A stretch of DNA of 64,000 nt, taken from Oligoflexia bacterium. GTDB taxonomy: Bacteria > Bdellovibrionota > UBA1018 > CAIMNF01. The position numbers and the translations under genes are program-made. The stretch spans positions 5,594-69,593 of the forward strand of contig CAIMWN010000018.1 in the NCBI GenBank assembly GCA_903845155.1. The letters are read 5' to 3'. Below are positions 20,455 through 36,753 of this stretch, one piece after another (position 1 is the stretch's first letter; each line of letters opens with the position of its first letter). The notes below the pieces were generated by a model, which was not told the origin of the DNA, made no database searches, and worked only from the letters and a program-made list of their open reading frames with translations.

Positions 20455-20597
20455 TCTCCATTCCTTCTGAAATATTGTATCGGGCTGGACGTCCTTACTC
20501 AGTATGCCACGTCTGCAAAAAACATCCAATTTTTCGTTGGGTTCCTAAGATTTTGTGCATTGGCTTTTCTGAATGAGTGTTAGAATGGAAGGTATTA

Positions 20598-21557
20598 ATG
20601 ACGAATCGCAATCAAATGATGCTGCTCATCGCCGTCTTCGCTCTGGGTGGATATTATCTTTTCAATACACCCACGCCGAGTCCCCCTGTTGGGGTGACCG
20701 AAATTGCGCAACCGCAACCGGAAGCGCCAGAAATGACGCCAAAATTGAAATTGAATGCCGCAACTGTTAAGCAAGCGCGAGGCATTCAGTTGAGTGGGAA
20801 GTCGGCAGAAGTCAGTCAATTCCTGCCTTCTGAGGTTCCTCAAGGAAAAGTAAATCCGCGATATACTAATAAGCCGAGCGATATGACTGTTGAATTCGAA
20901 GAGATTGACGGTCAAGCGGTGGCTTTTGGTGACACCATTATCGGTAATTTAAGTAAAGACTTTACTGAGAAAAAGGGCATTACTGAAATGTTCATTCCCA
21001 AGTACTGGGACAAAGGGATTGTTCCGTATGCCATTCAGGCAACGGCGCCTCACCAAGATATGATTCAACAAGCGATCGATTATTTTAATAAAAATACTTC
21101 GATTAAATTTGTTCCCTATACAGGGCAAGACGATGCAATTGTTTTCGTAAAAGGGGAGGAGCACTGTCTCTCCTATTTGGGACGGACAGGGGGAACTCAA
21201 CCCATTTATATTTCTGGCTTGTGTGGAACTCATGAGATTCTTCATGAGCTGATGCATGCACTTGGTTTCGTCCATGAGCAATCCAGGCCAGATCGCGATC
21301 AGTATGTGGATATTTTCTGGAACCAGATTCAGGAAAAATATCAGGCACAATTTGCCATGGTTCCTGAGGTATTTATGCAAAGTTATTTCGGCTCGCCCTT
21401 TGATGCAGGTTCCATTATGATGTATAGCTCGCATGCTTTTGGAGTGAGCCCTGAGGCAGTCACTCTTAAATTAAAAAATGGACAAGAAGTGAAGCAAAGT
21501 GCCGGAGGCTTAAGTTCGAGCGACATGGAGAGAGTGAATCGGCTTTATCAAAATTAA
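20598..21557 (+). CDS. Astacin-family (M12A) zinc metalloprotease, membrane-anchored or secreted
   Basis: HELMHALGFVHEQSRPDRD (HExxHxxGxxHE) plus Met-turn SIMMYS. N-terminal signal-anchor. ATG 20598 with SD ggaagg is preferred over the GTG at 20577. Confidence 0.85.
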   Translation: MTNRNQMMLLIAVFALGGYYLFNTPTPSPPVGVTEIAQPQPEAPEMTPKLKLNAATVKQARGIQLSGKSAEVSQFLPSEVPQGKVNPRYTNKPSDMTVEFEEIDGQAVAFGDTIIGNLSKDFTEKKGITEMFIPKYWDKGIVPYAIQATAPHQDMIQQAIDYFNKNTSIKFVPYTGQDDAIVFVKGEEHCLSYLGRTGGTQPIYISGLCGTHEILHELMHALGFVHEQSRPDRDQYVDIFWNQIQEKYQAQFAMVPEVFMQSYFGSPFDAGSIMMYSSHAFGVSPEAVTLKLKNGQEVKQSAGGLSSSDMERVNRLYQN

Positions 21558-21583
21558 TATGAAGAAATTAACGTGGAAATTTA

Positions 21584-22948
21584 ATGCTCTTTAATTCGAC
21601 GTCATTTATTTTTCTTTTCATGCCCTTGGTCTTGTTGATCACTAGCAAATTGCGTGGTCAAAATTGGGTGCGAGCCATTGCACTTTTTAGTCTCATTTTT
21701 TATGCGTTCGCAGGTCATGCGTGGTTTCTCATTCCGATGCTTTTTACTACGGTCCTCGATTTCTTTTTGGCAAAGGAAATGGAAAAGCCTAAAAATGGAG
21801 ATGCGCGGAAGTCTATTTTAGTGTTTTCCATTTGTGCGAACTTAAGCCTCCTTTTCTATTTTAAATACGCAGGTTTGTTCACTCATTTGTTGGGGATTTC
21901 GATAGCGGGGGTGATTCTTCCGGCCGGAATTTCATTTTATACCTTCCAAACTTTGTCCTATATGATTGATGTATACCGAGGGAGCGCGCGTGCCGAAAGG
22001 AACTTCTGGGTATTTTTGTCCTTCGTTTCCTTTTTCCCTCATCTCGTTGCCGGGCCACTCACTCGTCACCATCAGCTGATTCCTCAGTTAAAACGAAACG
22101 CTGAAATAAAAGTTACGCCGCTCTGGAAAGCAGGAGTGTTTCTTTTTGTGCTTGGGCTTTCGAAAAAGGTGCTGGTGGCCGATCAAATTGCCCACTTGAT
22201 TGACCCTGTTTTGGAGCAGCCAAACCTCATGAGTAATCTCGACTCCTGGTTCGCCCTCTTGGGATTTGCTTTTCAAATTTACTTTGATTTTAGTGGGTAT
22301 ACCGATATGGCCATTGGGCTTGGACGTTTGCTTGGGGTCGAACTCCCGCAAAATTTCAATGACCCTTATCGATCACTCAATCCTAGTGATTTTTGGAAAC
22401 GTTGGCACATCACGCTGAGTCAGTGGTTGCGTGACTATTTATATATTCCTTTAGGCGGCAATCGCTGCTCACCTGCAAGGCAAAGATTTAATCTTTTTAT
22501 GACTATGTTGCTCGGCGGATTGTGGCATGGCGCTAATTTTACCTTTGTCATTTGGGGTTTTTATCATGGACTCTTATTGGTTTTGTATCATCAGTTTCAG
22601 AAAAAATGGGATGGACTCTCACCTCCGAGTTCAAAAGTGTTCACATTCGTACTCATCACTTTTGGCTGGGTGTTTTTTCGTGCACGAAACCTGCATGAAG
22701 TGAGTATATGGTTTGGTCAATTATTCATTCCGTCACATCTTGCTTCACTGTTAAATCCTTTTGATTTGATCAAACTAGAATTATTACTGATCGTCGCTTT
22801 TGTAATGACCACAAAAGCCCGCAGTTATTCTAAGATTGAAGCATTTGAAAAAAGCAATGTTCCCTTTGAGTTTGCGCTAGGATTGCTCGCTGCGCTTGCT
22901 TTTTTTATGATGGCAACTTCATCTAAATTTATGTATTTTCAATTTTAA
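21584..22948 (+). CDS. MBOAT-family membrane O-acyltransferase (AlgI/DltB-like)
   Basis: Multi-TM protein with WHITLSQWLRDYLYIPLGGNR (conserved His block of MBOAT/AlgI). Confidence 0.85.
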   Translation: MLFNSTSFIFLFMPLVLLITSKLRGQNWVRAIALFSLIFYAFAGHAWFLIPMLFTTVLDFFLAKEMEKPKNGDARKSILVFSICANLSLLFYFKYAGLFTHLLGISIAGVILPAGISFYTFQTLSYMIDVYRGSARAERNFWVFLSFVSFFPHLVAGPLTRHHQLIPQLKRNAEIKVTPLWKAGVFLFVLGLSKKVLVADQIAHLIDPVLEQPNLMSNLDSWFALLGFAFQIYFDFSGYTDMAIGLGRLLGVELPQNFNDPYRSLNPSDFWKRWHITLSQWLRDYLYIPLGGNRCSPARQRFNLFMTMLLGGLWHGANFTFVIWGFYHGLLLVLYHQFQKKWDGLSPPSSKVFTFVLITFGWVFFRARNLHEVSIWFGQLFIPSHLASLLNPFDLIKLELLLIVAFVMTTKARSYSKIEAFEKSNVPFEFALGLLAALAFFMMATSSKFMYFQF

Positions 22949-22963
22949 AAGGGGGGCCTCTCA

Positions 22964-24052
22964 GTGCGCATTTTTCTCGTCACATTTACAGTCCTCGTTT
23001 TAGGGGTAGGGGGCTTCAATTATTGGATTGATCCCACTCATTGGCATCATTCTTTGAACGAGTTCACTGCACCTCTACAAAAAGGTGAAGTGAGAGTGCT
23101 TGGACGAGCGGTAGATGAGCGGTTGCTTAAATTGTCGTTGATCAAGTTTGCTCCACCCGCTGATGCTGTCTTGATGGCGAGTTCAAGAGGGCTTTTAGTT
23201 CAAGAGAAAATGTTTCCTAGCCCATGCCGTTTTTTGAATTTAAGTGTGCCCAATGGATCTATTCCCGAATTTGTCGCATTTTGGGAAGCCGTCAAACTTA
23301 CTGGTCATCTTCCTAAGACCTTGATTATTTTTCTGGACCCCTGGAGTTTTAATGCGAACGGAGAACTGGGAGATCAGTCCTGGCTTTTTAAGACGGGTTT
23401 GCTCGAACAGTTTAAGATTGAACATGGGGTCATTCCCACCATGAAGGCAAAACTCAGTAATGAATGGAAGCGATGGAGTGAGTTCGAGAGTCGTTTCTTT
23501 GATCTATTTACCTGGAGCAATTTTACAGCTTCGGTGAAAATATATGATGAGCAAGGGGGGCCTGAGCGTGACCCGTATCAGGTTGTATCTGAAGGCCAAG
23601 TACCTGAAGGCAAAGCAAGCTTTGCTTATGATGGATCCTATTCTGATCCAAAAAACATGAGCCCGATTTCACAGCAAGAAATTGAGCAAAGGGCGCGGAC
23701 AGAGCCTTCCCGTATGGATGACCCACAATTCAAAAACTATAAACAAGATCCTGAACTCTTTAATTTGTTGATGGTTTTAGCTTGGGATGCACTCTGGAAG
23801 GGCACCGAGGTGCATTTCGTCATCCCTCCTTTGCATGATGTGACTCGAAATCGACTTAATAAGCTTTCGTGGACAAAAATGATCCTTCCTGATTTTGAGT
23901 CAGTTTTGAACCTAATTCATGCTCGAAATCCAGGCATTGTGATTTGCAATTTACTGGACGCCTCGCTTGCCGGTTGTGCTCCGTCGGAATTCTTAGACGG
24001 GCTGCACATGAATCGCGATTGCGCTGCAAAAGTAATCAAGAAATGCTTTTAG
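22964..24052 (+). CDS. MBOAT partner protein (DltD/AlgJ-like, N-terminal membrane anchor)
   Basis: GTG start with SD gggggg (7-nt spacing) immediately after the MBOAT gene. Single N-terminal TM then an extracytoplasmic domain. Assignment is mainly by context. Confidence 0.45.
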   Translation: MRIFLVTFTVLVLGVGGFNYWIDPTHWHHSLNEFTAPLQKGEVRVLGRAVDERLLKLSLIKFAPPADAVLMASSRGLLVQEKMFPSPCRFLNLSVPNGSIPEFVAFWEAVKLTGHLPKTLIIFLDPWSFNANGELGDQSWLFKTGLLEQFKIEHGVIPTMKAKLSNEWKRWSEFESRFFDLFTWSNFTASVKIYDEQGGPERDPYQVVSEGQVPEGKASFAYDGSYSDPKNMSPISQQEIEQRARTEPSRMDDPQFKNYKQDPELFNLLMVLAWDALWKGTEVHFVIPPLHDVTRNRLNKLSWTKMILPDFESVLNLIHARNPGIVICNLLDASLAGCAPSEFLDGLHMNRDCAAKVIKKCF

Positions 24053-24100: not shown

Positions 24101-25561
24101 GTGCGAAATACGATAGTTTTATACTTAAACGGCATACGCTGCGAGCTGAGCGGAGACCTCGCTTTCATGACGGTGTCCGATTATCTCCGCTATCAAAAGG
24201 GCCTTACTGGTACCAAGGTAGTATGTGCTGAAGGCGACTGCGGTGCTTGCACAGTGCTCGTGTCGCGGATGGTGAATGGCAAACTTGGATCATACCAATC
24301 GATCAACTCCTGTATTAGTTTTATGTATCTGCTCGATTTGTGTCACCTCATCACGGTAGAGGGCTTAAAAAAAGAGGAGACACTTCATCCGGTTCAAAAG
24401 GCAATGCTTGATTCTAATGGCGCTCAATGCGGGTATTGCACACCTGGATTTATTTGTGCAATGGCTGGCCTGACTGAAGATGCAAAAAATGGGAAATTTA
24501 TTTTGGAAGAAAAGCGAGTTAAAAACTATTTGACTGGCAACCTTTGTCGCTGCACCGGTTACGACTCTATTATTCAAGCCGGTTGCTCGGTGAATGCTGA
24601 AGCGGCTCCTTCATTGCGCGTACTGTACCAGGATGAAGAAATTGAAAAGGATTTAAAATCACTTTCGGGCCAAACAGTGTGCCTGAAAGGCGCCCAGCAA
24701 GAGTTTTGTGCCCCGGCGACTTTATCTGAAGCGCTGACATTAAAAAGTGTAAATGTGGATCTGAAGCTCACCTCAGGAGCGACAGATCTAGGTGTACTTT
24801 CTAATAAGGGAAAATTAAAATTATTAAAAACGCTCACCCTTAATCATGTGGATGAGCTGTATTCGGTAAAAGAGGACACATCTTCACTGATGGTTGGAGC
24901 TAAAGCCTCGTTGACAGCGGTGGAAGAGGCCTGCCGAACACTTTTCCCGGCATTTTCAAACTACCTTCACATTTTTGCTTCGCCTCAAATTAAAAATGCA
25001 GGCACCCTCATTGGTAATGTGGTGAATGCATCTCCGATTGCCGACACCATTCCATTTTTAAAAGTAGCAGAAGCAGAAATAGGATTGAGTAGCGTTCGCG
25101 GAGAAAGAGTGCTCAATCTCAATCAGTTTTTTAAACCCGGCTACAAACAGCTCGATCTTTTGCCTGATGAACTCGTGACGCATGTGAAAATTCCAAAATC
25201 CCATGCAAAGTTTAAACTTTATAAAGTTTCCACGCGCAAAGACCTAGATATTTCTACCGTTACCTTTGCCGTTCGTTTTGAGTTAGTAGGTGACATCATT
25301 AAAAATATTTCTTTTGCATTCGGGGGTGTGGGGCCGAGCGTACTGCGCATGACTGAACTTGAGAAACAAGCAATTGGCAAAAAATTCGAGCCCGCACTCT
25401 TTAAGGCGCTTGCTCTAAATTTGCAGTCTATGATCACACCGCTGAGTGATGTTCGCGGAAGTGCGGACTACCGTCAACTACTGTGTCACAATCTGATGCT
25501 TAAGTTTTGTGACGAAGTGACGGCTGAGCTGGGGCTCCAATCTGCGGGGATTTCGGTATGA
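24101..25561 (+). CDS. xdhA: Xanthine dehydrogenase small subunit (2Fe-2S + FAD-binding)
   Basis: Two [2Fe-2S] cysteine clusters (CAEGDCGACTV; CGYCTPGF...CRCTGY) followed by a FAD-binding CO-dehydrogenase-flavoprotein-like domain. GTG start. ATGA overlap with xdhB. Confidence 0.9.
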   Translation: MRNTIVLYLNGIRCELSGDLAFMTVSDYLRYQKGLTGTKVVCAEGDCGACTVLVSRMVNGKLGSYQSINSCISFMYLLDLCHLITVEGLKKEETLHPVQKAMLDSNGAQCGYCTPGFICAMAGLTEDAKNGKFILEEKRVKNYLTGNLCRCTGYDSIIQAGCSVNAEAAPSLRVLYQDEEIEKDLKSLSGQTVCLKGAQQEFCAPATLSEALTLKSVNVDLKLTSGATDLGVLSNKGKLKLLKTLTLNHVDELYSVKEDTSSLMVGAKASLTAVEEACRTLFPAFSNYLHIFASPQIKNAGTLIGNVVNASPIADTIPFLKVAEAEIGLSSVRGERVLNLNQFFKPGYKQLDLLPDELVTHVKIPKSHAKFKLYKVSTRKDLDISTVTFAVRFELVGDIIKNISFAFGGVGPSVLRMTELEKQAIGKKFEPALFKALALNLQSMITPLSDVRGSADYRQLLCHNLMLKFCDEVTAELGLQSAGISV

Positions 25562-27900
25562 GTGTCGGGAATAGTATTCCTCATGATTCAGGCTTGGGTC
25601 ATGTCTGTGGCGAAAGTGTTTTTATTGATGATCGTGCTGAAACTCGTGGTGAAGTACACGTGGGCTTAGTCTGTAGTTCCATTGCGTGCGGTGATTTAAT
25701 TGAAATAGATGCAAGTGAGGCACTCAGGCATCCCGATTGTTTAGGGGTATTTACCGCCAAGGATTTCGTGCATAAAAAATGGGGAACCATTGTCCATGAC
25801 CAACCATTTTTGGTGGAAGACAAAATAAATTATATGAGTGAGCCCGTTTGCATTGTGGCTAGCCGCACACGGGATTCCATTGAAGCAATTAAACATTTAG
25901 TGAAGTTACAGGAAAAAGCGGCAGCAGGTATTTTTACCATTCAAGATGCCAGGAAAAATCAGTCTGTGATTTACCGCGCACTGAAGCCTTTTGTACAAGG
26001 AAACGTGGATCAAGCATTGAAGATGGCCCCTCATAAGCTCACCGGAACGTTTACGGTGGGTGGGCAAGAACATTTTTATATGGAATCGCAAGCGGCGGTG
26101 ATTTACCCACTTGAGAATGGGCAACTTGAAATTCATTCATCAAGCCAACATCCCAGTGAAACTCAGCGTACCGTTGCCGAGGCTTTAGGTTTATCGCTTC
26201 ATCAAGTGGTGTGTGTGGTGAAGCGTATGGGCGGGGGTTTTGGTGGCAAGGAATCTCAGGCAGGCCCTATTGCGGCTTATGCTGCATTGGTCGCTCAAAA
26301 GTTAAAGAAACCTGCTCGACTCATTCTCACTAAAGATGAAGACATGAAAATTACGGGAAAAAGACACCCTTTTCAGAATGAGTACGAAGTCGCTTTCGAC
26401 GATGACGGTAAAATTCTAGGAGTGAAGGTACTACTTCAATCAGACGGAGGAGCGTACGCGGATCTTTCTGCCTCTATTCTCGATCGGGCGATGTTTCACT
26501 TCGATGGAGTCTATTATTTAGAGAACGTGCACATCGATGCTGTTTGTTATCGAACGAACAATCATTCGAATACTGCATTCAGAGGTTTTGGTGGTCCACA
26601 GGGAAACATGACCATGGAAAGCATTATCGAAGATATCGCACATTTTTTGAAAAAGGATGCAGCCGTCGTGCGACTTCGAAACCTTTATCAAGGTCCGAAC
26701 GTCAAAACCCCGTACGGACAAAATCTTGAAAACAATATGCTGCCTGAGATTTTTAGACAACTCATCACTACTTCGGAGTATGAAAAGCGCCGAGTGGAGA
26801 TTGATAAGGAAAATCTAAAAAAAACAGGGGTGCTTCGCGGGATTTCCATCACCGGCACAAAGTTTGGAATAGCCTTTACTGCGCGTTTCCTTAATCAAGG
26901 GAATGCCCTCGTCAATTTGCATTTGGATGGGACTGTACAGGTGAGCACTGGTGCGACTGAAATGGGCCAAGGCGTGAACACTAAGATTCAGCAAATCGTA
27001 GCGCATGGTTTTGGGATTGAATCCGGATCAGTTCAAGTGATGACGACTTCTACAGAGAAAAATCATAATACCTCGCCTACGGCAGCATCCAGTGGTTCTG
27101 ATATTAATGGGGCGGCAGCGCTGAAAGCGGTAAACAAGATTAAGGTGAATTTAATAGGGCTTGCTCGTAAGAAATTCGCCGGTGAAGTGAGTTCCGCATT
27201 GAAAGAGTATGAGTTAGAGCAGAACGCGGAAACCGTGCCTTTAGATCCGAATTTTATCTTTCAACATGGTAAAGTAGTGGAACTTTCCACCAAAAAGGAA
27301 ATCTCTTTAAAAGAGCTCATTAGCATCGCTTATCAAAATCGTGTTTCTTTAGGTGCCTATGCACATTTTAAAACTGGTGGCCTTGGGTTTGATAAAGAGA
27401 AAGTGGAAGGCAAAGCGTTCAATTATTTTACGCAAGGAATGGCCGTGAGCGAAGTTTCTGTTGATGAATATACCGGTGAAGTGAAGGTTTTACGTGTAGA
27501 TCTATTGATGGACCTGGGTCGTTCTATTAATCCCGGTATTGATCGCGGGCAAGTGGCGGGAGGCTTTGTGCAAGGGATGGGGTGGGTCACTACTGAAAAT
27601 CTTTTTTACGATGAAAGACGAAATCTTATTTCTCATTCTCCGACTACTTATAAAATCCCAAATATTCAAGATACGCCACGCGAATTTAATATTCATTTTA
27701 TTGAAAACCTAAATAACGACTGTAATGTGTACGGTTCAAAAGCCGTGGGGGAGCCACCACTCTTGTTGGGGTCAAGTGTGTGGACAGCCGTAAAACATGC
27801 GCTCAGTTATCGGTCGAAAAGCAACATGGTAAACCTCACATCTCCTGCGACGGGCGAAGTGGTGTTAATGGAATTGACTCGCTTAAAGAGGAGCCCTTGA
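25558..27900 (+). CDS. xdhB: Xanthine dehydrogenase molybdopterin-binding large subunit
   Basis: 780 aa; aldehyde-oxidase/xanthine-dehydrogenase a/b hammerhead and MoCo-binding blocks (GGGFGGKE, GQGxxTK). Confidence 0.9.
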   Translation: MSVGNSIPHDSGLGHVCGESVFIDDRAETRGEVHVGLVCSSIACGDLIEIDASEALRHPDCLGVFTAKDFVHKKWGTIVHDQPFLVEDKINYMSEPVCIVASRTRDSIEAIKHLVKLQEKAAAGIFTIQDARKNQSVIYRALKPFVQGNVDQALKMAPHKLTGTFTVGGQEHFYMESQAAVIYPLENGQLEIHSSSQHPSETQRTVAEALGLSLHQVVCVVKRMGGGFGGKESQAGPIAAYAALVAQKLKKPARLILTKDEDMKITGKRHPFQNEYEVAFDDDGKILGVKVLLQSDGGAYADLSASILDRAMFHFDGVYYLENVHIDAVCYRTNNHSNTAFRGFGGPQGNMTMESIIEDIAHFLKKDAAVVRLRNLYQGPNVKTPYGQNLENNMLPEIFRQLITTSEYEKRRVEIDKENLKKTGVLRGISITGTKFGIAFTARFLNQGNALVNLHLDGTVQVSTGATEMGQGVNTKIQQIVAHGFGIESGSVQVMTTSTEKNHNTSPTAASSGSDINGAAALKAVNKIKVNLIGLARKKFAGEVSSALKEYELEQNAETVPLDPNFIFQHGKVVELSTKKEISLKELISIAYQNRVSLGAYAHFKTGGLGFDKEKVEGKAFNYFTQGMAVSEVSVDEYTGEVKVLRVDLLMDLGRSINPGIDRGQVAGGFVQGMGWVTTENLFYDERRNLISHSPTTYKIPNIQDTPREFNIHFIENLNNDCNVYGSKAVGEPPLLLGSSVWTAVKHALSYRSKSNMVNLTSPATGEVVLMELTRLKRSP

Positions 27901-27902
27901 GC

Positions 27903-28703
27903 ATGGAACAGAGTCTCCCTCAGTTTTGCGAGCGCTTTTTAGAGCTTTATCAAAATAAAACTCCGATGGTAGTCGTGACCCTAACCGATATGGTAGGACA
28001 TGCACCGCAAGATGTAGGCGCAAGAATGATCGTCGGAACGGACGAAATTTATTTCGGGACCGTGGGCGGCGGTAAGCTTGAAAAGCGTTGTATTGATTTA
28101 TCACGCGAGTTTCTAACATCAAAAATTCCAATTAAAAATCAGTCCCATCAATGGAACCTGCCACGCGATATTGGAATGACTTGCGGTGGAGAGGTGACCC
28201 TTTATTTTGAAACTTATAAACCTGAAGAGACGTGGAAGATTGCAATCTTTGGTGCGGGACATATTTCTCAGGAGTTAGTCCCCATATTGCTAAAATTAAA
28301 TTGTGAACTAACCGTCGTTGATCCGAGGCCAGAGTGGTTAAGTCGATTGCCCCATTCTCCTCGTTTGAAGAAGATTCAAGAAGAGAATATGCCGCTAGTG
28401 CTAGAGACTTTAGATTCGAACACTTTTGTTGCCATCGTGACCATGGGGCACGCGACCGACTACCCATTGGTGAAGCTAGCACTTGAAAAACATCATTTTC
28501 CCTATCTAGGAGTCATTGGAAGTAAAGTGAAGAGAATTAAAATGAACGCAGATTTGATAGCGAGCGGAATTCCTGAAAAGCTAGCTAAAGAGGGATTTTA
28601 TTTACCCATGGGTGAAGATTTCGGCAGAAACACACCGGCCGAAATTGCCTTAAGTATTGTGGCGCAATTGTTGAAAACAAGAGATCAGCTCTTCAATCCG
28701 TAG
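27903..28703 (+). CDS. xdhC: XdhC-family molybdenum-cofactor insertion chaperone
   Basis: XdhC/CoxI N- and C-terminal Rossmann-like halves (VVVTLTDMVGHAPQDVGARMIV...GGG...IFGAGHISQELV). ATG 27903 with SD aagaggag is preferred to the ORF-track start at 27780, which would overlap xdhB by 120 nt. Confidence 0.8.
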   Translation: MEQSLPQFCERFLELYQNKTPMVVVTLTDMVGHAPQDVGARMIVGTDEIYFGTVGGGKLEKRCIDLSREFLTSKIPIKNQSHQWNLPRDIGMTCGGEVTLYFETYKPEETWKIAIFGAGHISQELVPILLKLNCELTVVDPRPEWLSRLPHSPRLKKIQEENMPLVLETLDSNTFVAIVTMGHATDYPLVKLALEKHHFPYLGVIGSKVKRIKMNADLIASGIPEKLAKEGFYLPMGEDFGRNTPAEIALSIVAQLLKTRDQLFNP

Positions 28704-31700
28704 ACATGCATGCGGTTGATGCCGCCGTCCGGATATACCGTTACTTTGATTTGCTTAAATTCCTGTGAAGAGTGAATTCTAAATTCTATTTTATTCCCAG
28801 CATATGCTTTCACATTGGTTTTGGGAACGAGGATGTTCCATTGATCGCCGCCTGAAAGTGTCAGACCCTGAAGACTCAACTCAAAGGGATTATTGTTTCT
28901 AAAAAATGTAAAATCAATTTCAATGCGATGAATTTGAGAAGGGCGCCCCAGTTCAACAGTTACTTCTTCGAAGTGTCCCTTCGTTCTGCTTCTTGCTGAC
29001 TCGGATCCATCAAACATATTTACCGGAGGATAAGGCGAGATCATTTGCACTGCAGGACTGTAATGTTCGTTCGTGGCACCCGTAATTTTTCCTCCATAGG
29101 CGAGGCATGCAAGATCTACCTCAGCACCTTCAGGTAAGCGATCCCAATTCTGTTGAATGGTAGTAGGTGTGGCATTGTATTTGGGTGTCAGTGGCCGCAC
29201 CGGGTGCGGAATGGGATCAGGAAAAAGAATATTCTTTGCTTGATCTAATGGCTGAAAGTTAATTTTATCTTGTTCGGGCAGTGATTCATTAAATAGGCCC
29301 ACACGCGACAAGCCCCCGTCTGGATACATGGATACGCGAATAGTTTTGTAGGTGGTGTCATCCTTTGCGAGTTGCACTTGCTTTAAAGAGTGACCTTCTA
29401 GTTTCAATTTAGGTAAGATTACTTTCCACTGGTCTGATCTAATATCTAGGCCTTCAATCGTGACGGCCTCGGGATGATTTCCTTGATGAAATTGAGTAGA
29501 GAGTGAAACAAAGTGGATTGGAGAAGGTTTCTTCAATTGAAAGGTAAGACTGTCTCGAGGGTCGTGTGCAGGTTTGTAATTATGTCTGACGCTCTCCCAG
29601 CTATCCATGATTTTCCCCTGACGGCCATACAGTTCGGGATCAAATATAGGAAGGTTCGGCGACAAAAGGTTTTCAGCTCGTGCAAAACGCTCGTTGGTGA
29701 CCTCCAGTATTTTACTTCCTACCGCTAAGTTGAAGGGAGCCAGTGGGTCGGGCGTTCCTTTGATGGTGATTGCTTCTGGCTGGTCTGGTTTAAACGCTTC
29801 AAAAATAAGCCTTTTGTAGCCTAAATTCACTATTTCTTCCTGAGGAATGCTTGAGGTGTCGAAGTCAGATTTGAAAAGGGTGGTGTCCACTCCTTGAAAA
29901 TTGAGCTCCTTTAAAATAAGTTGTGCGGCCTCTGCAATAAACAGAACGCCTTTTGTGTCTGCATTGCACAGGATAACAAAGCCGAGTCCTCGATCTGGCC
30001 CCGAAAAACATTGAACAAAGAGACCACGAAAACCATCATTTGCTCCTTGATGAATGGCGAAGCGATTTGGGCCCGCTTCAGCAATAAAAACACCTAATCC
30101 AATATTCACTCCCATGAACTTCTGACTCAAGCGATCTTGGTCACCCAGCATCTGTATCGCCGTATCGTGCGAAATAGGACCTGAGCCCTTGATTGAATGG
30201 AAACTCTCGGTGAGCTTGCTTAAAAATGAAGCCATGTCTGAGGCAGTACCCATAGCACCGGCTGCAAAAGCTGGAAACTTCTTGCGGGTGCCTTTGACGG
30301 GCTCGCCTGAATCCAAATAACCATGAGCATAGTCAATGCCGGGAATTGTATTTTGCTCAAAGCTTAAATGGTGAAGCCCCAGTTCTTTGAAAAAATCTTG
30401 GGTCATTTCTTGAATACTCTTTTGTTCTAGTGATTCCAAGAGATGCTCGAGCACCAAGAACCCTCCGCCTGAGTATTGAAACGCAGAACCCGGTTCATGA
30501 AGTACGCCCACTTTGGGATATCCGTATTTTTGGTTGCCACTGAGAAGTTCCGAAATGCGAGGCATGGGCTCGTCCGCGGGAATCCCATTCACATAGTGCA
30601 TGTTTAATGCATTATGCTTCATCAGGTTTGCAAGTGTCACTTGGTTAGCCCACTCTGGACTATTTTTGTCCAAGGATTCTAATCTAAATGAAGAAGTGGA
30701 CTGTTCAAAAACGGAATTAACAGGAGTCGAAAGCGAAATGCCATTCTTTCTAAAATACTCAAGTGCAAAGGCGCTTGCCATCGTCTTGCTTAAGGATGCA
30801 AGCTCAAACCAAGTGTGCTCACCAACTCGTTCTTTCCCTCGCTGGCGATCACCAATGCATATGTTTTGTTTCGTCGTCAACGAGGTATTCACCGTGATGG
30901 TGGCGCCATTGACTTGGTAGCGAAGAAGTAATTGATTTAACTTTTCATGAAGATTTAAAAACGGCAGTTTCTTCAGCCTCTTGAGGCTGATTTCCCATAA
31001 AGCATTTCTTGCTTGAACGAGCTCCAGTTCCTGGGTGCTTTGTAAGCGCGTATTTAAATCAGCAAGTATCTCGGCGCTCGATTTTCCTTCTGCAGAAATG
31101 AGGTACTTAAACCCAAACTTCTTCAAGTAGCGGTCGCCCAATGCACGAAGTTCGGCCTGTGTCTCGGCGCCAGCTTTTAAAACAAGTGCTTGTTCTTGAG
31201 ATGCGACTTCATCGAGAGTTTTCTTGCTTTCGCCAATATTCCCGTGAAAGCTTGCGGCATGAAGGATGTCATCTAGGGTAAAGTTTTTTATAATCGTTTC
31301 AGCCTTCACCAAATCAACCGTGAGGTCAGAAGCAAGCGGGTGGGCAAACGAAACGCTTCCGCATATAGAAAAGTATTCGTTAAAACGTTGAATGTAATCT
31401 GTGCATAGAAACTTCTCAGGATCCAGTTTAGTCACGACATTCCAAGGGTCGCTTTCATTTCTGATTGACTCGACAGTAAACGGCAGTAAGAGTTCAGTTG
31501 CGAATTCGGGAGGGTGGGAACTTGTCATGAGTTTGATCATGATTTTCATTGCGATCCCGTACCATTTTTCAGTTCTTTCATCCCATTTCACTTGAACGAT
31601 TTTCTGAGCGTTCGATAAGTCTTTCCGAATGAAGAGCATTTCCTCATGAATAATTTTCAAGAATGCATCGATGCTAAATCGCCCATGATGAATCTCGTGC

Positions 31701-33433
31701 CAAACTTCCCAACGCGAGCGCTCCGCAGTGGCGAGGTCATCCATCACTCGTACAGAAACTCCATTGATGGTTGCAGGAAGTGCAACGCAGCCACGGCCTG
31801 ATAGCCAGTCGGTAAGGTACTGGAGTGATTGAAATACATTATAGCGGATTTCTTCGCTGTCGTTATTCGCTATAAATGGTGATTCCTTCATGTCGGCTAC
31901 AATTAATGACCGAGGATAGAGTGGGTGATGAGTGTCGAGGCCCACTATGTCTTTCCCGTGTATAAAACTCATCATGTCAGCGTGGTGCTCTTTTACTAGT
32001 AAACCTTCCACCATTTTTTGAAGAGGAGCAGAATCATTTTGTTGATGAAGTTCCCATGCGCGAACCAAGGCGAGTCCAATGCGAATAAAGTCTGGGTGGG
32101 CGACCCAAAAACCACTCAAGCCGCGCTTAAGCTGTGTGATCACATCTCTCATAAAACCTTTAATCGTCATTTGAAATGAGGCGCTCAGGCGATCATCGTC
32201 GATGGAAAGAATGCCATACATGCCGCCAATCTTAATCCCACCTCTTGAGCCCACCACTTCAGTGAGAAGATCGTGTGAGGCTTTGATGCATTTAATTACA
32301 ATATTCGGATCAGCCTTTACGGGAATTCGATAGTTTGAGTCCTCTCTAAATAAGCGTGCCGTTGAAGCGAGGTAGTCATGCCAACCAAGAGATGCACCAG
32401 CGAAGTAGGGATAGAGTGCGTCCATAATCTCATTCACGCGAAAGATCGCACGCGGATTTTCTAAAACGAGGAGTAAACGGATACTGCCCAACTTGTACGC
32501 GGAATGACGATTTTTGAGGAGTTTTTCTGTCGTTTCCACCATGTGATGAATGTAAAGAGCATCTTCTTCATTTTCTAGCTTGGGCACATAGAAGGTGAGG
32601 GCGGCTTCGTTTTCCCAATGTTTAAAACAATGGAGAGCAAAATCGTATAAGTGTAAAGGGATTGGTTGCTCACGGTAAAATAAGAAGGTGCAAGGCAGCG
32701 CGAGACCCGGAAAGCGTTTAATAGGAAGGGTGAGCCGTTCGCTTTCAATTTTGTAGGTTTTGTTATTTTTTGAGTCTGTAAAGCTTAAGCTCTGGTCGTA
32801 ACAGGCGTTCAGATTCATTGCTGCCGCGATTAAATCCTGTCGGATAGGCGTTTTTGAATCTTCATCATCCGCGCCCCATTTAGGAAGATCAGTGCTAGTT
32901 TCAAGCAATTCAGAAATAATGCTCGGTTCATCTTTGAGTTTACGATGAAAGGCATTCATCGCGTTGATACAGAGTTTTGCGTTATCGGGTGGACCAAAGA
33001 GAGTAACGTGATTTCCGCTCAAGTGCTTCGGAATAGGCGCAATGGGTTTGCCATAACCGCGTGTGCAGTAGTGTTCGTTTTTCGGCCCAAGCACAGTGCG
33101 GCCGTTTCCGTCTTCGTGGCTGATGACGGTTTCATATCGTGGATCCAGTAAATCAATTCCGAGTGTGCGATTGAGTTCGCTGCAAGCGCGCGTTCGTTGA
33201 TCAATAAATTGTCGATCTTGAGTGCGTTGAGAGAGTGTTGCAGCCAATTGCCCTTTCACGCCATCGTAAAGTTCGCATAAAAACTGAAGCGAAGATTGGG
33301 TCTCAAGGCCTCCACCTTTGCCTACTTCGCGAAGTTCAGGAATATTCGTAACGGGCTGGCTCTCAGCCAATAACTTGGAAAGAAGGGCCGGAGTAATATA
33401 ATCTTGATAATAGGGGATCTCTCGCTGTTTCAT
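28685..33433 (-). CDS. Four-module purine-catabolism fusion protein: malate-synthase-like / OHCU decarboxylase / serine beta-lactamase-fold hydrolase / allantoicase (two repeats)
   Basis: Uninterrupted 1582-codon ORF. aa 1-640 match malate synthase A blocks (VTLFGPPDNAKLCINAMNA; IRLLLVLENPRAIFRVNEIMDALYPYFAGASLGWHDY; FWVAHPDF). aa 650-825 match OHCU decarboxylase (SFHGNIGE; KKFGFKYLISAEGKSSAEILADLNTRL). aa 840-1180 carry SxxK (ASLSK), YxN (HYVNG) and HxG (IHQGANDG) of the beta-lactamase/PBP fold. aa 1200-1582 carry two allantoicase repeats (MDSWESVRH; GSESARSR) each ending YPDGG...R. ATGA-coupled to hiuH upstream. Confidence 0.8.
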   Translation of the reverse strand: MKQREIPYYQDYITPALLSKLLAESQPVTNIPELREVGKGGGLETQSSLQFLCELYDGVKGQLAATLSQRTQDRQFIDQRTRACSELNRTLGIDLLDPRYETVISHEDGNGRTVLGPKNEHYCTRGYGKPIAPIPKHLSGNHVTLFGPPDNAKLCINAMNAFHRKLKDEPSIISELLETSTDLPKWGADDEDSKTPIRQDLIAAAMNLNACYDQSLSFTDSKNNKTYKIESERLTLPIKRFPGLALPCTFLFYREQPIPLHLYDFALHCFKHWENEAALTFYVPKLENEEDALYIHHMVETTEKLLKNRHSAYKLGSIRLLLVLENPRAIFRVNEIMDALYPYFAGASLGWHDYLASTARLFREDSNYRIPVKADPNIVIKCIKASHDLLTEVVGSRGGIKIGGMYGILSIDDDRLSASFQMTIKGFMRDVITQLKRGLSGFWVAHPDFIRIGLALVRAWELHQQNDSAPLQKMVEGLLVKEHHADMMSFIHGKDIVGLDTHHPLYPRSLIVADMKESPFIANNDSEEIRYNVFQSLQYLTDWLSGRGCVALPATINGVSVRVMDDLATAERSRWEVWHEIHHGRFSIDAFLKIIHEEMLFIRKDLSNAQKIVQVKWDERTEKWYGIAMKIMIKLMTSSHPPEFATELLLPFTVESIRNESDPWNVVTKLDPEKFLCTDYIQRFNEYFSICGSVSFAHPLASDLTVDLVKAETIIKNFTLDDILHAASFHGNIGESKKTLDEVASQEQALVLKAGAETQAELRALGDRYLKKFGFKYLISAEGKSSAEILADLNTRLQSTQELELVQARNALWEISLKRLKKLPFLNLHEKLNQLLLRYQVNGATITVNTSLTTKQNICIGDRQRGKERVGEHTWFELASLSKTMASAFALEYFRKNGISLSTPVNSVFEQSTSSFRLESLDKNSPEWANQVTLANLMKHNALNMHYVNGIPADEPMPRISELLSGNQKYGYPKVGVLHEPGSAFQYSGGGFLVLEHLLESLEQKSIQEMTQDFFKELGLHHLSFEQNTIPGIDYAHGYLDSGEPVKGTRKKFPAFAAGAMGTASDMASFLSKLTESFHSIKGSGPISHDTAIQMLGDQDRLSQKFMGVNIGLGVFIAEAGPNRFAIHQGANDGFRGLFVQCFSGPDRGLGFVILCNADTKGVLFIAEAAQLILKELNFQGVDTTLFKSDFDTSSIPQEEIVNLGYKRLIFEAFKPDQPEAITIKGTPDPLAPFNLAVGSKILEVTNERFARAENLLSPNLPIFDPELYGRQGKIMDSWESVRHNYKPAHDPRDSLTFQLKKPSPIHFVSLSTQFHQGNHPEAVTIEGLDIRSDQWKVILPKLKLEGHSLKQVQLAKDDTTYKTIRVSMYPDGGLSRVGLFNESLPEQDKINFQPLDQAKNILFPDPIPHPVRPLTPKYNATPTTIQQNWDRLPEGAEVDLACLAYGGKITGATNEHYSPAVQMISPYPPVNMFDGSESARSRTKGHFEEVTVELGRPSQIHRIEIDFTFFRNNNPFELSLQGLTLSGGDQWNILVPKTNVKAYAGNKIEFRIHSSQEFKQIKVTVYPDGGINRMHVYGLKS

Positions 33434-33753
33434 GTGCCTCGATAGGTGGAGTATCCAAACGGGTTCAGTAAAAGTGGAACGTGATACTTTCGTTGAGTGT
33501 TTTCTACTTTAAAGATAACGGGTATGTCTTGGAAGAAGCATTCGGTAGATTTATTTTTAAAATAGTTTTCAATCTCAAAAATGATTTGATAAATCCCAAC
33601 ATTCTTTTCGATATCAAAGGAAAATCGGCCGTCCGCATTGGTCGTTCCCGCAGCGAGAGTGGTCCATTGGCCGCCATTTTTGATGAGCAACTTCACGGTG
33701 ACTCCAGAGGCAGCGGTTCCGAGACTCGTATCTAAAATATGAGTGCTGATCAT
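33430..33753 (-). CDS. hiuH: 5-hydroxyisourate hydrolase (transthyretin-like)
   Basis: 107 aa. N-terminal STHILDTSLGTAASGV and C-terminal ...YRGT (HIUase signature is YRGS). Confidence 0.8.
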   Translation of the reverse strand: MISTHILDTSLGTAASGVTVKLLIKNGGQWTTLAAGTTNADGRFSFDIEKNVGIYQIIFEIENYFKNKSTECFFQDIPVIFKVENTQRKYHVPLLLNPFGYSTYRGT

Positions 33754-33756
33754 TTC

Positions 33757-35366
33757 TTACTCCTTCTTAAACGAAAAATCTAAATTAATGGTTTCATTCT
33801 CTTTGACGGAAACTTTTTTAGACTGATTGCCAAATACTTCATGCCACGCTTCAAGGGTGTATTCACCTACGGGGATGTTCTTGATGATGAACTCTCCGGC
33901 ATCATTGGTCACGCTGTAAAAGGGATGATCCATTACTGCGATCGATGCACTCATCCAAGGATGTACGCTACATTTCGTCTGTACAAAAATCTCAGGGTGA
34001 TTGAAAATCTTGGTGACCCGATCATCTTTGCTTGGCATCGCAACATTGAAATTCTCATTCTGACTGGTGATTGATTTCACATTGTGAAATGTCGCATCGC
34101 TGTTGATGAAATCCACCTTTTGCCCCACACGTACGGCAATGACTCGAGGTTCATATTGGCAATTTTTTTGATCCAGAATTGCCGCTACGGCAGGCACGTC
34201 ATGATATTCTTTGCCTTCAAGGCCCTTCGAGATTCGGACAAGGACGTTTTTTAGTTTTCCATTGTTGATCATGATGTCGTTGGCGTAAGTGTCGCTTTTA
34301 TTTTGTTGTGCACAAATGAGTGGAAGTTGAAGTTTCTCACCGTGAAGTGCGGGACCATTAAACAGAGCTAATCCTTTAATGGTGCCAGTGGGGCCATTCG
34401 CTGCAGCCGATGGTTCAGTTGCTGGTGTATTCGTTGCAGTTGCTGCAAGGGGTGCCGAGTTCTCGTGGGTAAAGAAAATCACGCCAATGATCAATGCAAC
34501 TCCCACTAAACCAAACGCTTTAGATCGAGGTGGATTCTTTAAGCGCACCACGAAGAATTCCCGAATGGCTGCTCCCGCTGCACTCATTAACAAAAGAATG
34601 ATCCAATTGTATTGGTTTCCGTAAGTGGACGGAAAATGATTGCTGAGCATGATGAAGATCACGGGAAGCGTGAAGTAGGTATTATGGGTAGAACGATTTT
34701 TTGCGTTTTTCCCCCATTCCTGATTCACGGGCTCGCCTCTTTTAGACGCTTCCACCATTTTCAATTGGCGAGGAATAATGCGTAGAAAAACGTTGGCCGT
34801 CATCCAAGTACCGAGCATGCCGCCGATATGAATATAGGCAGCTCTACCGCTGAGTGTATGGCAGAGAAAATATGCCATCCCGCCAAACCAAAGGAGGGTG
34901 AGGGCGTGCGCAAGAACCGGAGTGGTTTTTGAAAATTTGGATTCCCATAAAAAATCATAAAAGAGCCAAGAACCCACCAGTGAGATGACACTCAGACCAA
35001 CCGCCTGAAAAAACGTAATGTGAGAGAGACGGAAGCGTCGAGAAGAAAAGTGCCACTTCCGGCGTAGAAAATCATGCAGATCAAAAAAATTCCGCTGAGC
35101 CAGGTCCAGTATGACTCCCATTTGAACCAATGGAGTGATTCAGGAACTTTGGTAGGGCCCATGAGAAGTTTCTCTACGTGGTAAAATCCACCACCATGAA
35201 CCATCCACAACTCACCCACATGTCCGTCTTTTTTTGATAGCTCATTGAACTCAATGGTGCGATCCAGCCACATGAAAAAGATGGAAGTTCCAATCCACGT
35301 AATGGCGACGGTAATATGAAGCCAGCGTCCTAGTAAAAGTAGCCAATCAAATAACTCTTGATCCAC
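33757..35366 (-). CDS. puuD: PuuD-like integral-membrane urate oxidase with C-terminal cupredoxin (type-1 copper) domain; apparent +1 frameshift in an A6/T6 run
   Basis: The N-terminal 124-aa ORF (GTG 35366, SD gagggg) reads WLHITVAITWIGTSIFFMWLD...GELWMVHGGGFYH...LHWFKWESYWTWLSG, as recalled for the Urate_ox_N/PuuD family. The membrane domain continues in another frame (ORF 33757-35130) after the run at 35009-35014. One extra base joins ...SVSLTLRFF|QAVGLSVISL... seamlessly. The C-terminus has His-x37-Cys-x2-His-x2-Met (FHNV...CSVHPWM), an amicyanin-like copper site, with no CxxCH. Confidence 0.5.
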
Positions 35367-35433: not shown

Positions 35434-36753
35434 ATGCCCGGGCAAAATTACCGCTTCTTTCTCGCTAGTATTTTAAATCCAAAAAACGACACCAAGTGCG
35501 ATTATTTTGCGCATGGGATGTTGGTCGTTTGCGATCAGGGTAAACAGAGCTTCATTGAGGCCGTTCTCCCGTTCAATAAGGGCATGAAAAAATACTCAAG
35601 ACTCATGACCACCGCCAATACCACTGATTTTGGGAGTGCGGTGATCATGCCCGGATTCTTTGATATGCACTTTCATTGGGTGCAAGATGATGTTCGCACG
35701 CAACCCAAGGACTCTCTGCTTGAGTGGCTTGAAAAGTATACCTTTCCCGCTGAAATGAAATTTGCAGATCCAAAATATGCTGCAAGTGAGGCCAAGATTT
35801 TTTTCAAACGCTTGAGTCGAGTTGGCACATTGGGTGGCGCTTGTTATAGTTCTATTCACGGTCCGGCGCTGGAGTGCGCGATGAGTGAAGTGAAGGGGGA
35901 TTTCGTCATTGGGAATGTGCTGATGGATCAGTTTTCTCCGCCTGAGCTTACTCAGACGGAGGCTGAGGCAATTGCGCTCACCAAGAAGATGATTCGAAAG
36001 TTTGGGAGGAGATTTGCGTTTACCCCTCGCTTTGCAATCAGCACCTCGCCAGCGCTGATGAAAAAAGGAAGTAAGCTTGCCGACCAAGCTCATTGTTTTA
36101 AACAAAGTCACTTGTCAGAAAATCCGGCAGAAATTGAATTTGTTTTGAAACTCTATAAAAAGTTACCGGGTTACAAAAAGTGTTCCTCTTATACAGATAT
36201 ATACAAAAAGACAGGAATGCTCGGCAAGCGTTCACTGATGGGGCATGGTATTCATCTTTCCAGTGCAGAATTAAAAATGCTCCATGAAACAAAAACCACG
36301 CTCATTCATTGTCCAACCTCGAACGCGCCGATTCGAGAAAAGGGTCTTGGTTCTGGGCTTTTTGATTTCAAACGGGTTGAAAGAGCGAAAGTGCGTTGGG
36401 CACTTGGTTCCGATATTGGTGGCGGCCCCTTTTTATCGATGTTTGATGTGATGAGAAGTTTTGTGATTCAAAATAAGCGAGCCAAGGTGAAAGGTGCCAC
36501 TTTTGTAAAGGCGTTGTACCGTTCCACGCTCTCGGGTGCCGAGGTTTTTGGAATTGCTGCAAAGACTGGAAATTTAAATCGGAAGAAGGAAGTAAATTTT
36601 ATCGTCGTGCCGTTGAATGCTTCAAAGCCCCCCCATTCCGCGGAGGATGCATTGAAGCGCATTATCAATGCCCCAAAGGCGAAGCGAGAGTTGTTTGATC
36701 AGCTGCCGAGCGTAGTTTACTACCGCGGCAAACCTATCGTGAATCAAGCGTAG
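35434..36753 (+). CDS. guaD: Guanine deaminase
   Basis: Collinear with E. coli GuaD: PGFFDMHFHWVQ, SLLEWLEKYTFPAE, FTPRFAISTS, HLSENPAEIEFV, HCPTSN, LGSDIGGG. Confidence 0.85.
   Translation: MPGQNYRFFLASILNPKNDTKCDYFAHGMLVVCDQGKQSFIEAVLPFNKGMKKYSRLMTTANTTDFGSAVIMPGFFDMHFHWVQDDVRTQPKDSLLEWLEKYTFPAEMKFADPKYAASEAKIFFKRLSRVGTLGGACYSSIHGPALECAMSEVKGDFVIGNVLMDQFSPPELTQTEAEAIALTKKMIRKFGRRFAFTPRFAISTSPALMKKGSKLADQAHCFKQSHLSENPAEIEFVLKLYKKLPGYKKCSSYTDIYKKTGMLGKRSLMGHGIHLSSAELKMLHETKTTLIHCPTSNAPIREKGLGSGLFDFKRVERAKVRWALGSDIGGGPFLSMFDVMRSFVIQNKRAKVKGATFVKALYRSTLSGAEVFGIAAKTGNLNRKKEVNFIVVPLNASKPPHSAEDALKRIINAPKAKRELFDQLPSVVYYRGKPIVNQA

Follow-up and report, generated by a model that had tools for sequence, protein, structure and literature searches.

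A beta-lactamase-fold (Bla) domain, found within a four-domain protein encoded in the 64-kb stretch of DNA analysed here (hereafter, the window), is a candidate for a new, serine-hydrolase type of allantoinase that displaced the known types, and we regard this reading as likely. It builds on the observed identity, fold, conservation, gene context and fusion partners of the domain, and on its local complementarity with the allantoinases AllB and PuuE. The same reading had been put forward in a preliminary description of the window, and it is supported as a candidate by a conserved fusion and gene linkage, by the presence of AllB or PuuE in sister clusters that lack the Bla domain, by varied fusions of the domain to ureide enzymes and by its invariant Ser, Lys and Tyr.

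Domain layout, fold and motifs of the fusion protein

The fusion protein (1582 aa) is encoded by a single uninterrupted open reading frame on the minus strand (28685-33433). Its N-terminal malate-synthase-like (MS-like) domain (aa 1-690; 31364-33433) contains Pfam matches to MS_TIM-barrel and MS_C that span aa 242-646, and is followed by an OHCU decarboxylase domain (aa ~695-823; 30965-31351; TIGR03180, 1.3e-20) with a PF09349 match at aa 710-821 (7.6e-20), whose product is predicted from sequence to be (S)-allantoin. Next comes the Bla domain, of the PF00144 beta-lactamase/DD-peptidase fold (aa ~826-1215; 29789-30958), in which the Pfam match covers aa 861-1163 (9e-25; 88 bits, cut-off 27), and the protein ends in an allantoicase domain (aa ~1225-1582; 28688-29761; TIGR02961, 1.3e-57) with two repeats matched at aa 1239-1579 (PF03561, 2.6e-52). 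This Pfam order bears out the earlier claim that the Bla domain sits between the allantoin-producing and allantoate-consuming modules of one polypeptide. The best relatives are from Bdellovibrionota, with 57% in the Bla domain and 70% in the MS-like portion, and a megablast search of the fusion ORF against plasmids gave no match.

The preliminary description had located the Bla domain at 29894-30916, which is correct as to place and too short as to extent: the AlphaFold model is confident (pLDDT 93.7) over aa ~826-1215, or nt 29789-30958, and takes in an invariant C-terminal helix, QEEIVN. The fold comprises an alpha/beta and an all-alpha domain, as in PF00144 serine hydrolases. A PDB sequence search with the family profile returned only remote class C matches (1e-13), and no close solved structure was found, the nearest folds being at 15-22% identity. 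A class C (AmpC) beta-lactamase proper was rejected: with the NCBIfam model NF033085 the domain reaches 42 bits (cut-off 415), it has HQG in place of KTG, and it is internal to a 1582-aa fusion.

All three motifs of PF00144 enzymes (S-x-x-K, the motif-2 Tyr and the beta3 K/H-x-G) were found. The first, S880-L-S-K883 (30785-30796, minus strand, as claimed), supplies the nucleophile Ser and general-base Lys and is invariant in 86 family homologues, mostly standalone proteins of eukaryotic type, and in 81 fusion proteins. The second is H946-Y947-V-N949 (30587-30598, minus strand), with Y947-V-N949 at nt 30587-30595 as previously placed; its His and Tyr are invariant, while residue 949 is Asn in 44 of the 86 homologues and 49 of the 81 fusion proteins. 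The third, H1128-Q-G-A-N1132-D-G-F-R1136 (30026-30052, minus strand), is a family-specific version of the KTG strand with invariant H, Q, N and R. Here the position first assigned to H-x-G (30047-30055) was off by one codon and covers I-H-Q; H1128-Q-G1130 lies at nt 30044-30052. The three catalytic signatures described earlier are thus present, with Ser880, Lys883, Tyr947 and His1128 invariant across both the 86 and the 81 proteins, but Asn949 and Gly1130 vary across the family, residue 1130 being Ala rather than Gly in 75 of 86 homologues. The family has an invariant set of its own, consisting of HY, HQ(G/A)AN-GFR and QEEIVN.

The purine-catabolism neighbourhood lacks a known type of allantoinase

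Upstream of the fusion lies a gene for 5-hydroxyisourate (HIU) hydrolase (33430-33753, minus strand; PF00576, 1.2e-33; TIGR02962 above cut-off), the stop of which overlaps the fusion start by 4 nt, so that the two are probably co-translated from one operon. Beyond it lies the gene for a PuuD-type membrane urate oxidase (33757-35366, minus strand), which is broken into two ORFs; the frameshift responsible, near 35010-35030, may reflect decay of the pathway in this organism or an assembly error. On the plus strand, xdhA, xdhB and xdhC (24101-28703), encoding xanthine dehydrogenase and its maturation factor, are convergent with the fusion ORF and overlap its 3' end by 19 nt. A guanine-deaminase-like amidohydrolase is encoded at 35434-36753 (plus strand; match to guanine deaminase at 3e-88, short of the curated cut-off); that it might be a hidden allantoinase was ruled out by this match and by its lack of similarity to AllB.

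Together these genes cover each step from guanine and xanthine to ureidoglycolate, with the exception of allantoinase. Phmmer searches of all ORFs with E. coli AllB and the S. meliloti PuuE domain found no allantoinase of either type in the window, which extends to the full 64 kb the earlier statement that the cluster has no canonical allantoinase. With the S. meliloti PuuE-UraD fusion as query, the UraD half alone matches in the window and in related loci, and the PuuE half does not match the Bla domain.

The Bla domain and the known allantoinases are locally complementary

The comparison across about a hundred other genomes included 80 fusion loci, mostly from Bdellovibrionota and some from Planctomycetota, with flanks of about 10 kb (1.19 Mb in total). 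Bdellovibrio sp. HCB337 (NZ_CP178621.1) and Peredibacter sp. HCB2-198 (NZ_CP174607.1) are examples of genomes with the fusion. The four-domain fusion is complete in 74 of these, and the remaining six are cut by contig ends. HIU hydrolase adjoins it in 57 of the 80 loci, PuuD in 54 and xdhABC in 24-28, and loci from Planctomycetota carry a classical uricase (PF01014) in place of PuuD. Searches for AllB (threshold E<1e-3), PuuE and AllA gave zero matches in the 1.19 Mb of flanks. Every other neighbour family occurs in at most nine of the 80 loci, and none is allantoinase-like. The recurrent neighbours were considered as alternative allantoinases, and none of them (uricase, MoeA, NIF3, MltA, GNAT, Tag glycosylase, an M24 peptidase, a CDA-type deaminase and an ABC ATPase) fits.

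As positive controls, the same searches detect puuE beside uraD and alc in Vibrio and on an S. meliloti replicon, and the PuuE query matches PuuE in control and sister loci at 1e-126 to 1e-128. Two sister clusters are informative: one (L096) holds puuD, uraH, an allantoicase-OHCU decarboxylase fusion and an MS-like gene together with an allantoinase of AllB type, which matches E. coli AllB at 1.3e-88, and the other (L095) has the same gene set with a PuuE-type allantoinase (1.3e-128). The Bla domain is absent from both. Across the window, the 80 loci (1.19 Mb) and these two clusters, the Bla domain and AllB or PuuE occur in a complementary manner.

The absence of AllB and PuuE applies to the window and the 80 loci. 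The Bla domain might have an accessory role beside a canonical allantoinase encoded elsewhere in the genome, such as clearance of side products of urate oxidation, an esterase or thioesterase activity tied to the MS-like domain, or a scaffold for oligomerisation or channelling. PF00144 relatives do include esterases and large oligomers (e.g. EstB, IS11 and the octameric Pab87), and at three loci (L094, L097 and L098) the standalone gene for the MS-like protein lies away from genes of ureide metabolism. We nevertheless consider an accessory role unlikely. AllB or PuuE is in the cluster exactly where the Bla domain is missing, the domain is fused to allantoicase also where the MS-like domain is missing, and no member departs from the catalytic Ser, Lys and Tyr, which makes a pure scaffold improbable.

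The MS-like domain may handle ureidoglycolate or glyoxylate

Sequence comparison makes the MS-like domain a candidate ureidoglycolate lyase or, alternatively, a malate synthase that consumes glyoxylate. Assignment as a malate synthase A equivalog was rejected (TIGR01344, 138 bits against a cut-off of 594), Arg276 not being conserved: relative to E. coli AceB, R276 is replaced by W and W277 by H, while R166, E250, D278, W365 and D447 are kept. All of 59 fused and 104 standalone MS-like homologues show the R276W and W277H changes, and some of the standalone homologues adjoin AllE/AllC or PuuE/AllB clusters. A eukaryotic malate-synthase-like ureidoglycolate lyase (UGL), DrMSL, carries R276I and W365M, and the study describing it places the UGL group in eukaryotes only (PMC10120013). 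Compared by these reported residue changes, the MS-like domain of the fusion differs in having R276W and W277H and in keeping W365 (PMC10120013). As a point against reading the Bla domain as allantoinase from its position, fused partners need not act in adjacent steps, and the N-terminal MS-like domain is not pathway-adjacent to the OHCU decarboxylase.

The Bla family is joined to ureide enzymes in several architectures

Besides the four-domain protein, the family occurs in Bla-allantoicase, OHCU decarboxylase-Bla-allantoicase and HIU hydrolase-Bla (P0069) fusions, and the dinoflagellate Polykrikos kofoidii has a Bla-AllA(PF04115)-allantoicase protein (P0274). The family also occurs as standalone proteins, among others in protists. 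The standalone homologues (n = 76) are of eukaryotic origin in each case with a named source or an available gene context; for three of them (L084-L089) the neighbouring genes on the contig are of eukaryotic type and carry no operon information. Of the 76, 34 end in a PTS1-like tripeptide, such as SKL, ARL or SRL, which points to the peroxisome, where many eukaryotes break down ureides.

Association with ureide enzymes points to the pathway and not to the step, and the Bla domain might instead perform another ureide hydrolysis, as a ureidoglycolate amidohydrolase or lyase, in amidohydrolysis of the allantoate or ureidoglycine type, or in the handling of (R)-allantoin, with allantoinase encoded elsewhere. 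An AllA-type lyase is absent from the window as well as from the 80 loci, and if the MS-like domain really is a malate synthase, no enzyme would be assigned to the ureidoglycolate step either. The Polykrikos protein, however, joins the Bla domain to an AllA-type ureidoglycolate lyase and allantoicase; since it already has that lyase, the Bla domain is not that enzyme. In otherwise equal clusters, moreover, the domain complements AllB or PuuE and not AllA or the MS-like protein, allantoicase renders an allantoate amidohydrolase route unnecessary, and no racemase is needed because OHCU decarboxylase makes (S)-allantoin directly. Assignment to a different ureide step thus appears improbable. A chance fusion, in which the Bla domain would be no more than a common D-aminopeptidase, DD-peptidase, esterase or beta-lactamase unrelated to purine catabolism, is highly improbable: its closest solved folds are those of D-amino acid amidase, R61 DD-peptidase, EstB and class C beta-lactamases, but identity to these solved relatives is low, the class C model falls far below its cut-off, the domain is internal to a cytoplasmic enzyme with no signal peptide context, and the fusion is kept across phyla, with the family joined to ureide enzymes in varied ways.

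Proposed pathway, mechanism and significance

With the Bla domain as allantoinase, guanine and xanthine would be converted to urate by guanine deaminase and XdhABC, urate to 5-hydroxyisourate by PuuD, and 5-hydroxyisourate to OHCU by HIU hydrolase. The OHCU decarboxylase domain of the fusion would then yield (S)-allantoin, the beta-lactamase-fold domain would open the hydantoin ring to give allantoate, the allantoicase domain would split allantoate into ureidoglycolate and urea, and the MS-like domain would dispose of ureidoglycolate or glyoxylate.

We infer the substrate and chemistry of the Bla domain from its context and its likeness to better-known enzymes. On the model of class C beta-lactamases and DD-peptidases, Ser880, activated by Lys883 and Tyr947, would attack the C4 carbonyl of the hydantoin ring; cleavage of the N3-C4 amide bond would leave an allantoyl-serine ester, from which water activated by Tyr947 would free allantoate. 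The family-specific invariant residues His940, His946, Gln1129, Asn1132, Arg1136 and Asn1203 may line a small polar pocket that accommodates the ureide, replacing the subsites for beta-lactam or peptide. Catalytic details may differ from the class C model, given a Y-x-N motif whose Asn varies and a third motif that reads H-Q-G or H-Q-A instead of K-T-G.

More tentatively, and with somewhat less than even confidence, we suggest that the fusion is a single-chain machine converting OHCU to glyoxylate and two urea, in which a covalent serine-hydrolase allantoinase of a third class with a new mechanism, widespread among predatory bacteria, planctomycetes and marine protists and peroxisomal in the last, works together with a bacterial MS-like ureidoglycolate lyase. 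In that event the lyase would be of a type so far reported from eukaryotes only.

To our knowledge there are two types of allantoinase, AllB/DAL1 and PuuE, which are unrelated, and we know of no PF00144 enzyme that opens a hydantoin ring. A literature search found no serine or beta-lactamase-fold allantoinase, in agreement with the initial view that such an enzyme would be undescribed. If the allantoinase reading is correct, a third, covalent type would be a clear example of an enzyme displacing non-homologous counterparts in a pathway central to nitrogen recycling, ring opening of hydantoin would be a new reaction class for the beta-lactamase/PBP fold, and a pathway hole would be closed in planctomycetes, in predators resembling Bdellovibrio and in numerous marine algae and protists. 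A metal-independent allantoinase of this kind could also be used in biosensors. Genes of the family are at present annotated as 'beta-lactamase' or 'CubicO peptidase', which inflates counts of resistance genes, and the fusion offers a system in which to study substrate channelling over four active sites.

Comparison with known systems

AllB/DAL1 allantoinases belong to the amidohydrolase superfamily and have a binuclear metal centre. They catalyse the reaction proposed for the Bla domain, and an AllB-type gene fills its slot in one sister cluster (L096), but their fold is unrelated to that of the Bla domain and their mechanism is metal-dependent. PuuE has a polysaccharide-deacetylase fold and is metal-independent. 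In the S. meliloti PuuE-UraD fusion and in Vibrio, PuuE occupies the same slot, fused to or beside OHCU decarboxylase and beside allantoicase, and PuuE clusters, like those of the Bla fusion, also hold uraH, puuD, xdhABC and guaD; the Bla domain has no sequence or fold relationship to PuuE, and by analogy its chemistry would be covalent, through an acyl-serine.

Among serine hydrolases, the Bla domain shares 15-22% identity with DaaA (2dns), Pab87 (2qmi), R61 DD-peptidase (1cef/3pte), EstB (1ci8), class C beta-lactamases and LACTB. It differs from PF00144 serine hydrolases in the variable Asn of its Y-x-N motif, in its own set of invariant residues, and in being intracellular or peroxisomal and tied to ureide enzymes. 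The cyanuric acid hydrolases and barbiturases of the AtzD family provide a precedent for metal-independent, Ser-Lys ring opening of cyclic ureides and amides, with a fold and substrates completely different from those of the Bla domain.

Results

The open reading frame at 28685..33433 (minus strand) runs uninterrupted for 1582 aa and fuses four modules: a malate-synthase-like (MS-like) module (aa ~1-690, 31364-33433, minus strand; Pfam MS_TIM-barrel and MS_C), which scores 138 bits with the NCBIfam model TIGR01344 against a cut-off of 594; an OHCU decarboxylase module (aa ~704-823; Pfam and NCBIfam); a PF00144 'Beta-lactamase' module (aa 861-1163, E 9e-25), the candidate allantoinase; and an allantoicase module of two repeats (aa 1239-1579; Pfam and NCBIfam), all on the minus strand. 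The stop of an HIU hydrolase gene (33430-33753, minus strand) overlaps the start of the fusion, a PuuD-type urate oxidase in two reading frames lies at 33757-35366 (minus strand), a guanine-deaminase-like amidohydrolase at 35434-36753 (plus strand), and xdhA, xdhB and xdhC occupy 24101-28703 (plus strand). The genes further out (astacin, MBOAT, MsrBA, response regulator, GST, RpoN) have no ureide relation.

The two puuD frames, 34992-35366 and 33757-35130 (its own aa 35-456), correspond to aa 1-115 and 113-538 of the ~538-aa PuuD of relatives and meet at ~35010-35030, at a T6 run adjoining a CT repeat; the split reflects either an indel in the assembly or a genuine pseudogene. The xdhC ORF (27780-28703, plus strand) is convergent with the fusion ORF, the 3' ends overlapping by 19 nt. 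As listed, it begins at a GTG 120 nt within xdhB, and as its Pfam match starts only at aa 58, translation probably begins further downstream. Immediately upstream of xdhA, 20577-24052 (plus strand) encodes an astacin metalloprotease, an MBOAT acyltransferase and a 362-aa ORF without family match, none apparently connected to the purine genes.

The catalytic motifs of the PF00144 domain were largely as first described: S880-L-S-K883 lies at nt 30785-30796 and Y947-V-N949 at nt 30587-30595, while the third, H1128-Q-G1130, exists but occupies nt 30044-30052, one codon from the position given in the preliminary description. The domain itself is real, and an AlphaFold2 model built from a 77-sequence alignment is confident (pLDDT 93.7, pTM 0.92); its fold spans ~aa 826-1215 and so exceeds the range of about aa 835-1185 proposed earlier. 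An AmpC identity was rejected, the class C model scoring 42 bits against a cut-off of 415. Conservation was assessed in 86 full-length family members and in 81 fusion proteins. Ser880, Lys883, His940, His946, Tyr947, His1128, Asn1132, Arg1136 and Asn1203 are invariant in both sets, as is Gln1129 bar one exception among the 86. Asn949 varies in both, and position 1130 changes from Gly to Ala in 75 of the 86, a set of mostly standalone, eukaryotic-type proteins; thus all three signatures are present, although only their Ser, Lys, Tyr and His are constants of the family.

That the cluster lacks a canonical allantoinase, as originally claimed, holds for every ORF of the 64-kb window: E. coli AllA, AllB, AllC, AllD and AllE and the S. 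meliloti PuuE-UraD protein, used as queries, found no match except for the UraD half. That the search method works is shown by positive cases: on a Vibrio replicon and in S. meliloti, the same queries picked up puuE with uraD and alc as its neighbors. A domain-alignment scan with one genome per species yielded 80 loci, by record title ~63 from Bdellovibrionota (Bdellovibrio, Bacteriovorax, Peredibacter, Oligoflexales), 7 from Planctomycetota and a few from other groups. The complete four-domain protein is present in 74; the remaining 6 are cut by contig ends. Adjacent to the fusion are HIUase (57 loci), PuuD (54), xdhC (28), xdhB (27) and xdhA (24), and every other neighboring family occurs in at most nine loci, none being allantoinase-like. 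AllB, PuuE and AllA are absent from the 1.19 Mb that these loci comprise, 32 of them with the full +/-10 kb.

In planctomycete loci a classical uricase (PF01014) replaces PuuD, so non-homologous enzymes take the urate oxidase position as well. Seven loci (L031, L034, L037, L042, L045, L050, L051) carry the fusion with this cofactor-less uricase and MoeA and without PuuD; their record titles are mostly planctomycete, L037 being titled Chitinophaga pinensis.

Two sister clusters, which are contexts of standalone MS-like genes and serve as natural controls, fill the allantoinase slot in other ways. One (L096) contains puuD, uraH, an allantoicase-OHCU decarboxylase fusion, an allantoinase of AllB type that matches E. 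coli AllB at 1.3e-88, and an MS-like gene; the other (L095, a Myxococcales MAG) contains MS-like, a PuuE-type allantoinase (1.3e-128), puuD, an allantoicase-OHCU decarboxylase ORF and uraH. There are therefore three versions of one gene set, with AllB, PuuE or the PF00144 domain in the same slot, the classical signature of non-orthologous displacement. The allantoicase-OHCU decarboxylase fusions (~507 aa; L095:12536-14071, plus strand; L096:6569-8092, minus strand) have no Bla domain and the reverse of the domain order in the window protein.

An exhaustive profile search of the domain family (826 cluster representatives at E<=1e-30) revealed, besides the four-domain protein, which in some copies ends in ARL or SKL, the architectures OHCUdc-Bla-allantoicase, Bla-allantoicase, HIUase-Bla (P0069) and, in a transcript of the dinoflagellate Polykrikos kofoidii (P0274), Bla-AllA(PF04115)-allantoicase with an SKL end. 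The fusion partners are ureide enzymes in every case. That the domain performs another ureide hydrolysis is improbable, and a role as ureidoglycolate lyase is ruled out because P0274 already contains one in its AllA.

Standalone forms of ~430 aa have named sources that are all protists (Prymnesium, Sphaeroforma, Amorphochlora); for three of them the contigs were inspected, and the neighboring genes there are of eukaryotic type, and 34 of 76 end in a PTS1-like tripeptide. The eukaryote-type multi-enzyme versions (P0274, P0069, P0254, P0305), among them four-domain proteins with an ARL or SKL terminus, suggest peroxisomal ureide 'super-enzymes', and gene transfer between protists and bacteria is possible.

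Eukaryotic 'malate synthase-like' proteins, in which Arg276 and the acetyl-CoA site are gone, were shown to be (S)-ureidoglycolate lyases by a study that found none but eukaryotes in this group (PMC10120013). The MS-like domain of the fusion has many standalone bacterial homologues of ~690 aa. Arg276 is replaced by Trp and Trp277 by His, and both replacements hold without exception in 59 fused homologues and 104 standalone bacterial ones; Arg166, Glu250, Asp278, Trp365 and Asp447 are retained. In Desulfobulbales, the standalone MS-like gene shares an operon with an ABC transporter, an AllE-like bicupin (4e-79), an AllC-like M20 protein (2e-59) and GntR, the slot expected for a ureidoglycolate consumer. 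Ureide genes of the AllE/AllC or PuuE/AllB kind are repeated neighbors of the ~690-aa family (L090, L091, L095, L096); no ureide genes lie within 10 kb of it in L094, L097 and L098 (a Bradymonadaceae MAG and two others), and roles of the family may extend beyond purine catabolism. From these residues and contexts, a lyase role is likely, which makes the domain a candidate bacterial counterpart of the eukaryotic enzyme; a genuine glyoxylate-consuming synthase is possible. The argument on the PF00144 domain is the same either way.

Discussion

Gene context and the displacement pattern with AllB and PuuE support the earlier proposal, and we conclude that the PF00144 domain is probably an allantoinase. 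Ser880, activated by Lys883 and Tyr947, would attack the hydantoin C4 of (S)-allantoin supplied by the adjoining OHCU decarboxylase domain; the N3-C4 bond would break to leave an allantoyl-enzyme ester, whose hydrolysis would pass allantoate to the allantoicase domain. A variable Asn949, a strand reading H-Q-G/A and the invariance of His940, His946, Gln1129, Asn1132, Arg1136 and Asn1203 fit a small polar substrate better than an acylamido beta-lactam or a peptide. An accessory or scaffold role for the domain, beside a canonical allantoinase elsewhere in the genome, is unlikely, and an unrelated peptidase or esterase is very improbable.

Full-text literature searches did not turn up any serine or beta-lactamase-fold allantoinase, and databases label family members in generic terms ('beta-lactamase', 'serine hydrolase', 'CubicO group peptidase'). 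Both the pathway and the fold are already known; what would be new is the pairing of this fold with this reaction. The Vibrio cluster, ordered uraH-puuE-uraD-alc-allA-puuD, offers a comparison: the window would encode equal functions, with the PF00144 domain replacing PuuE and the MS-like domain replacing AllA.
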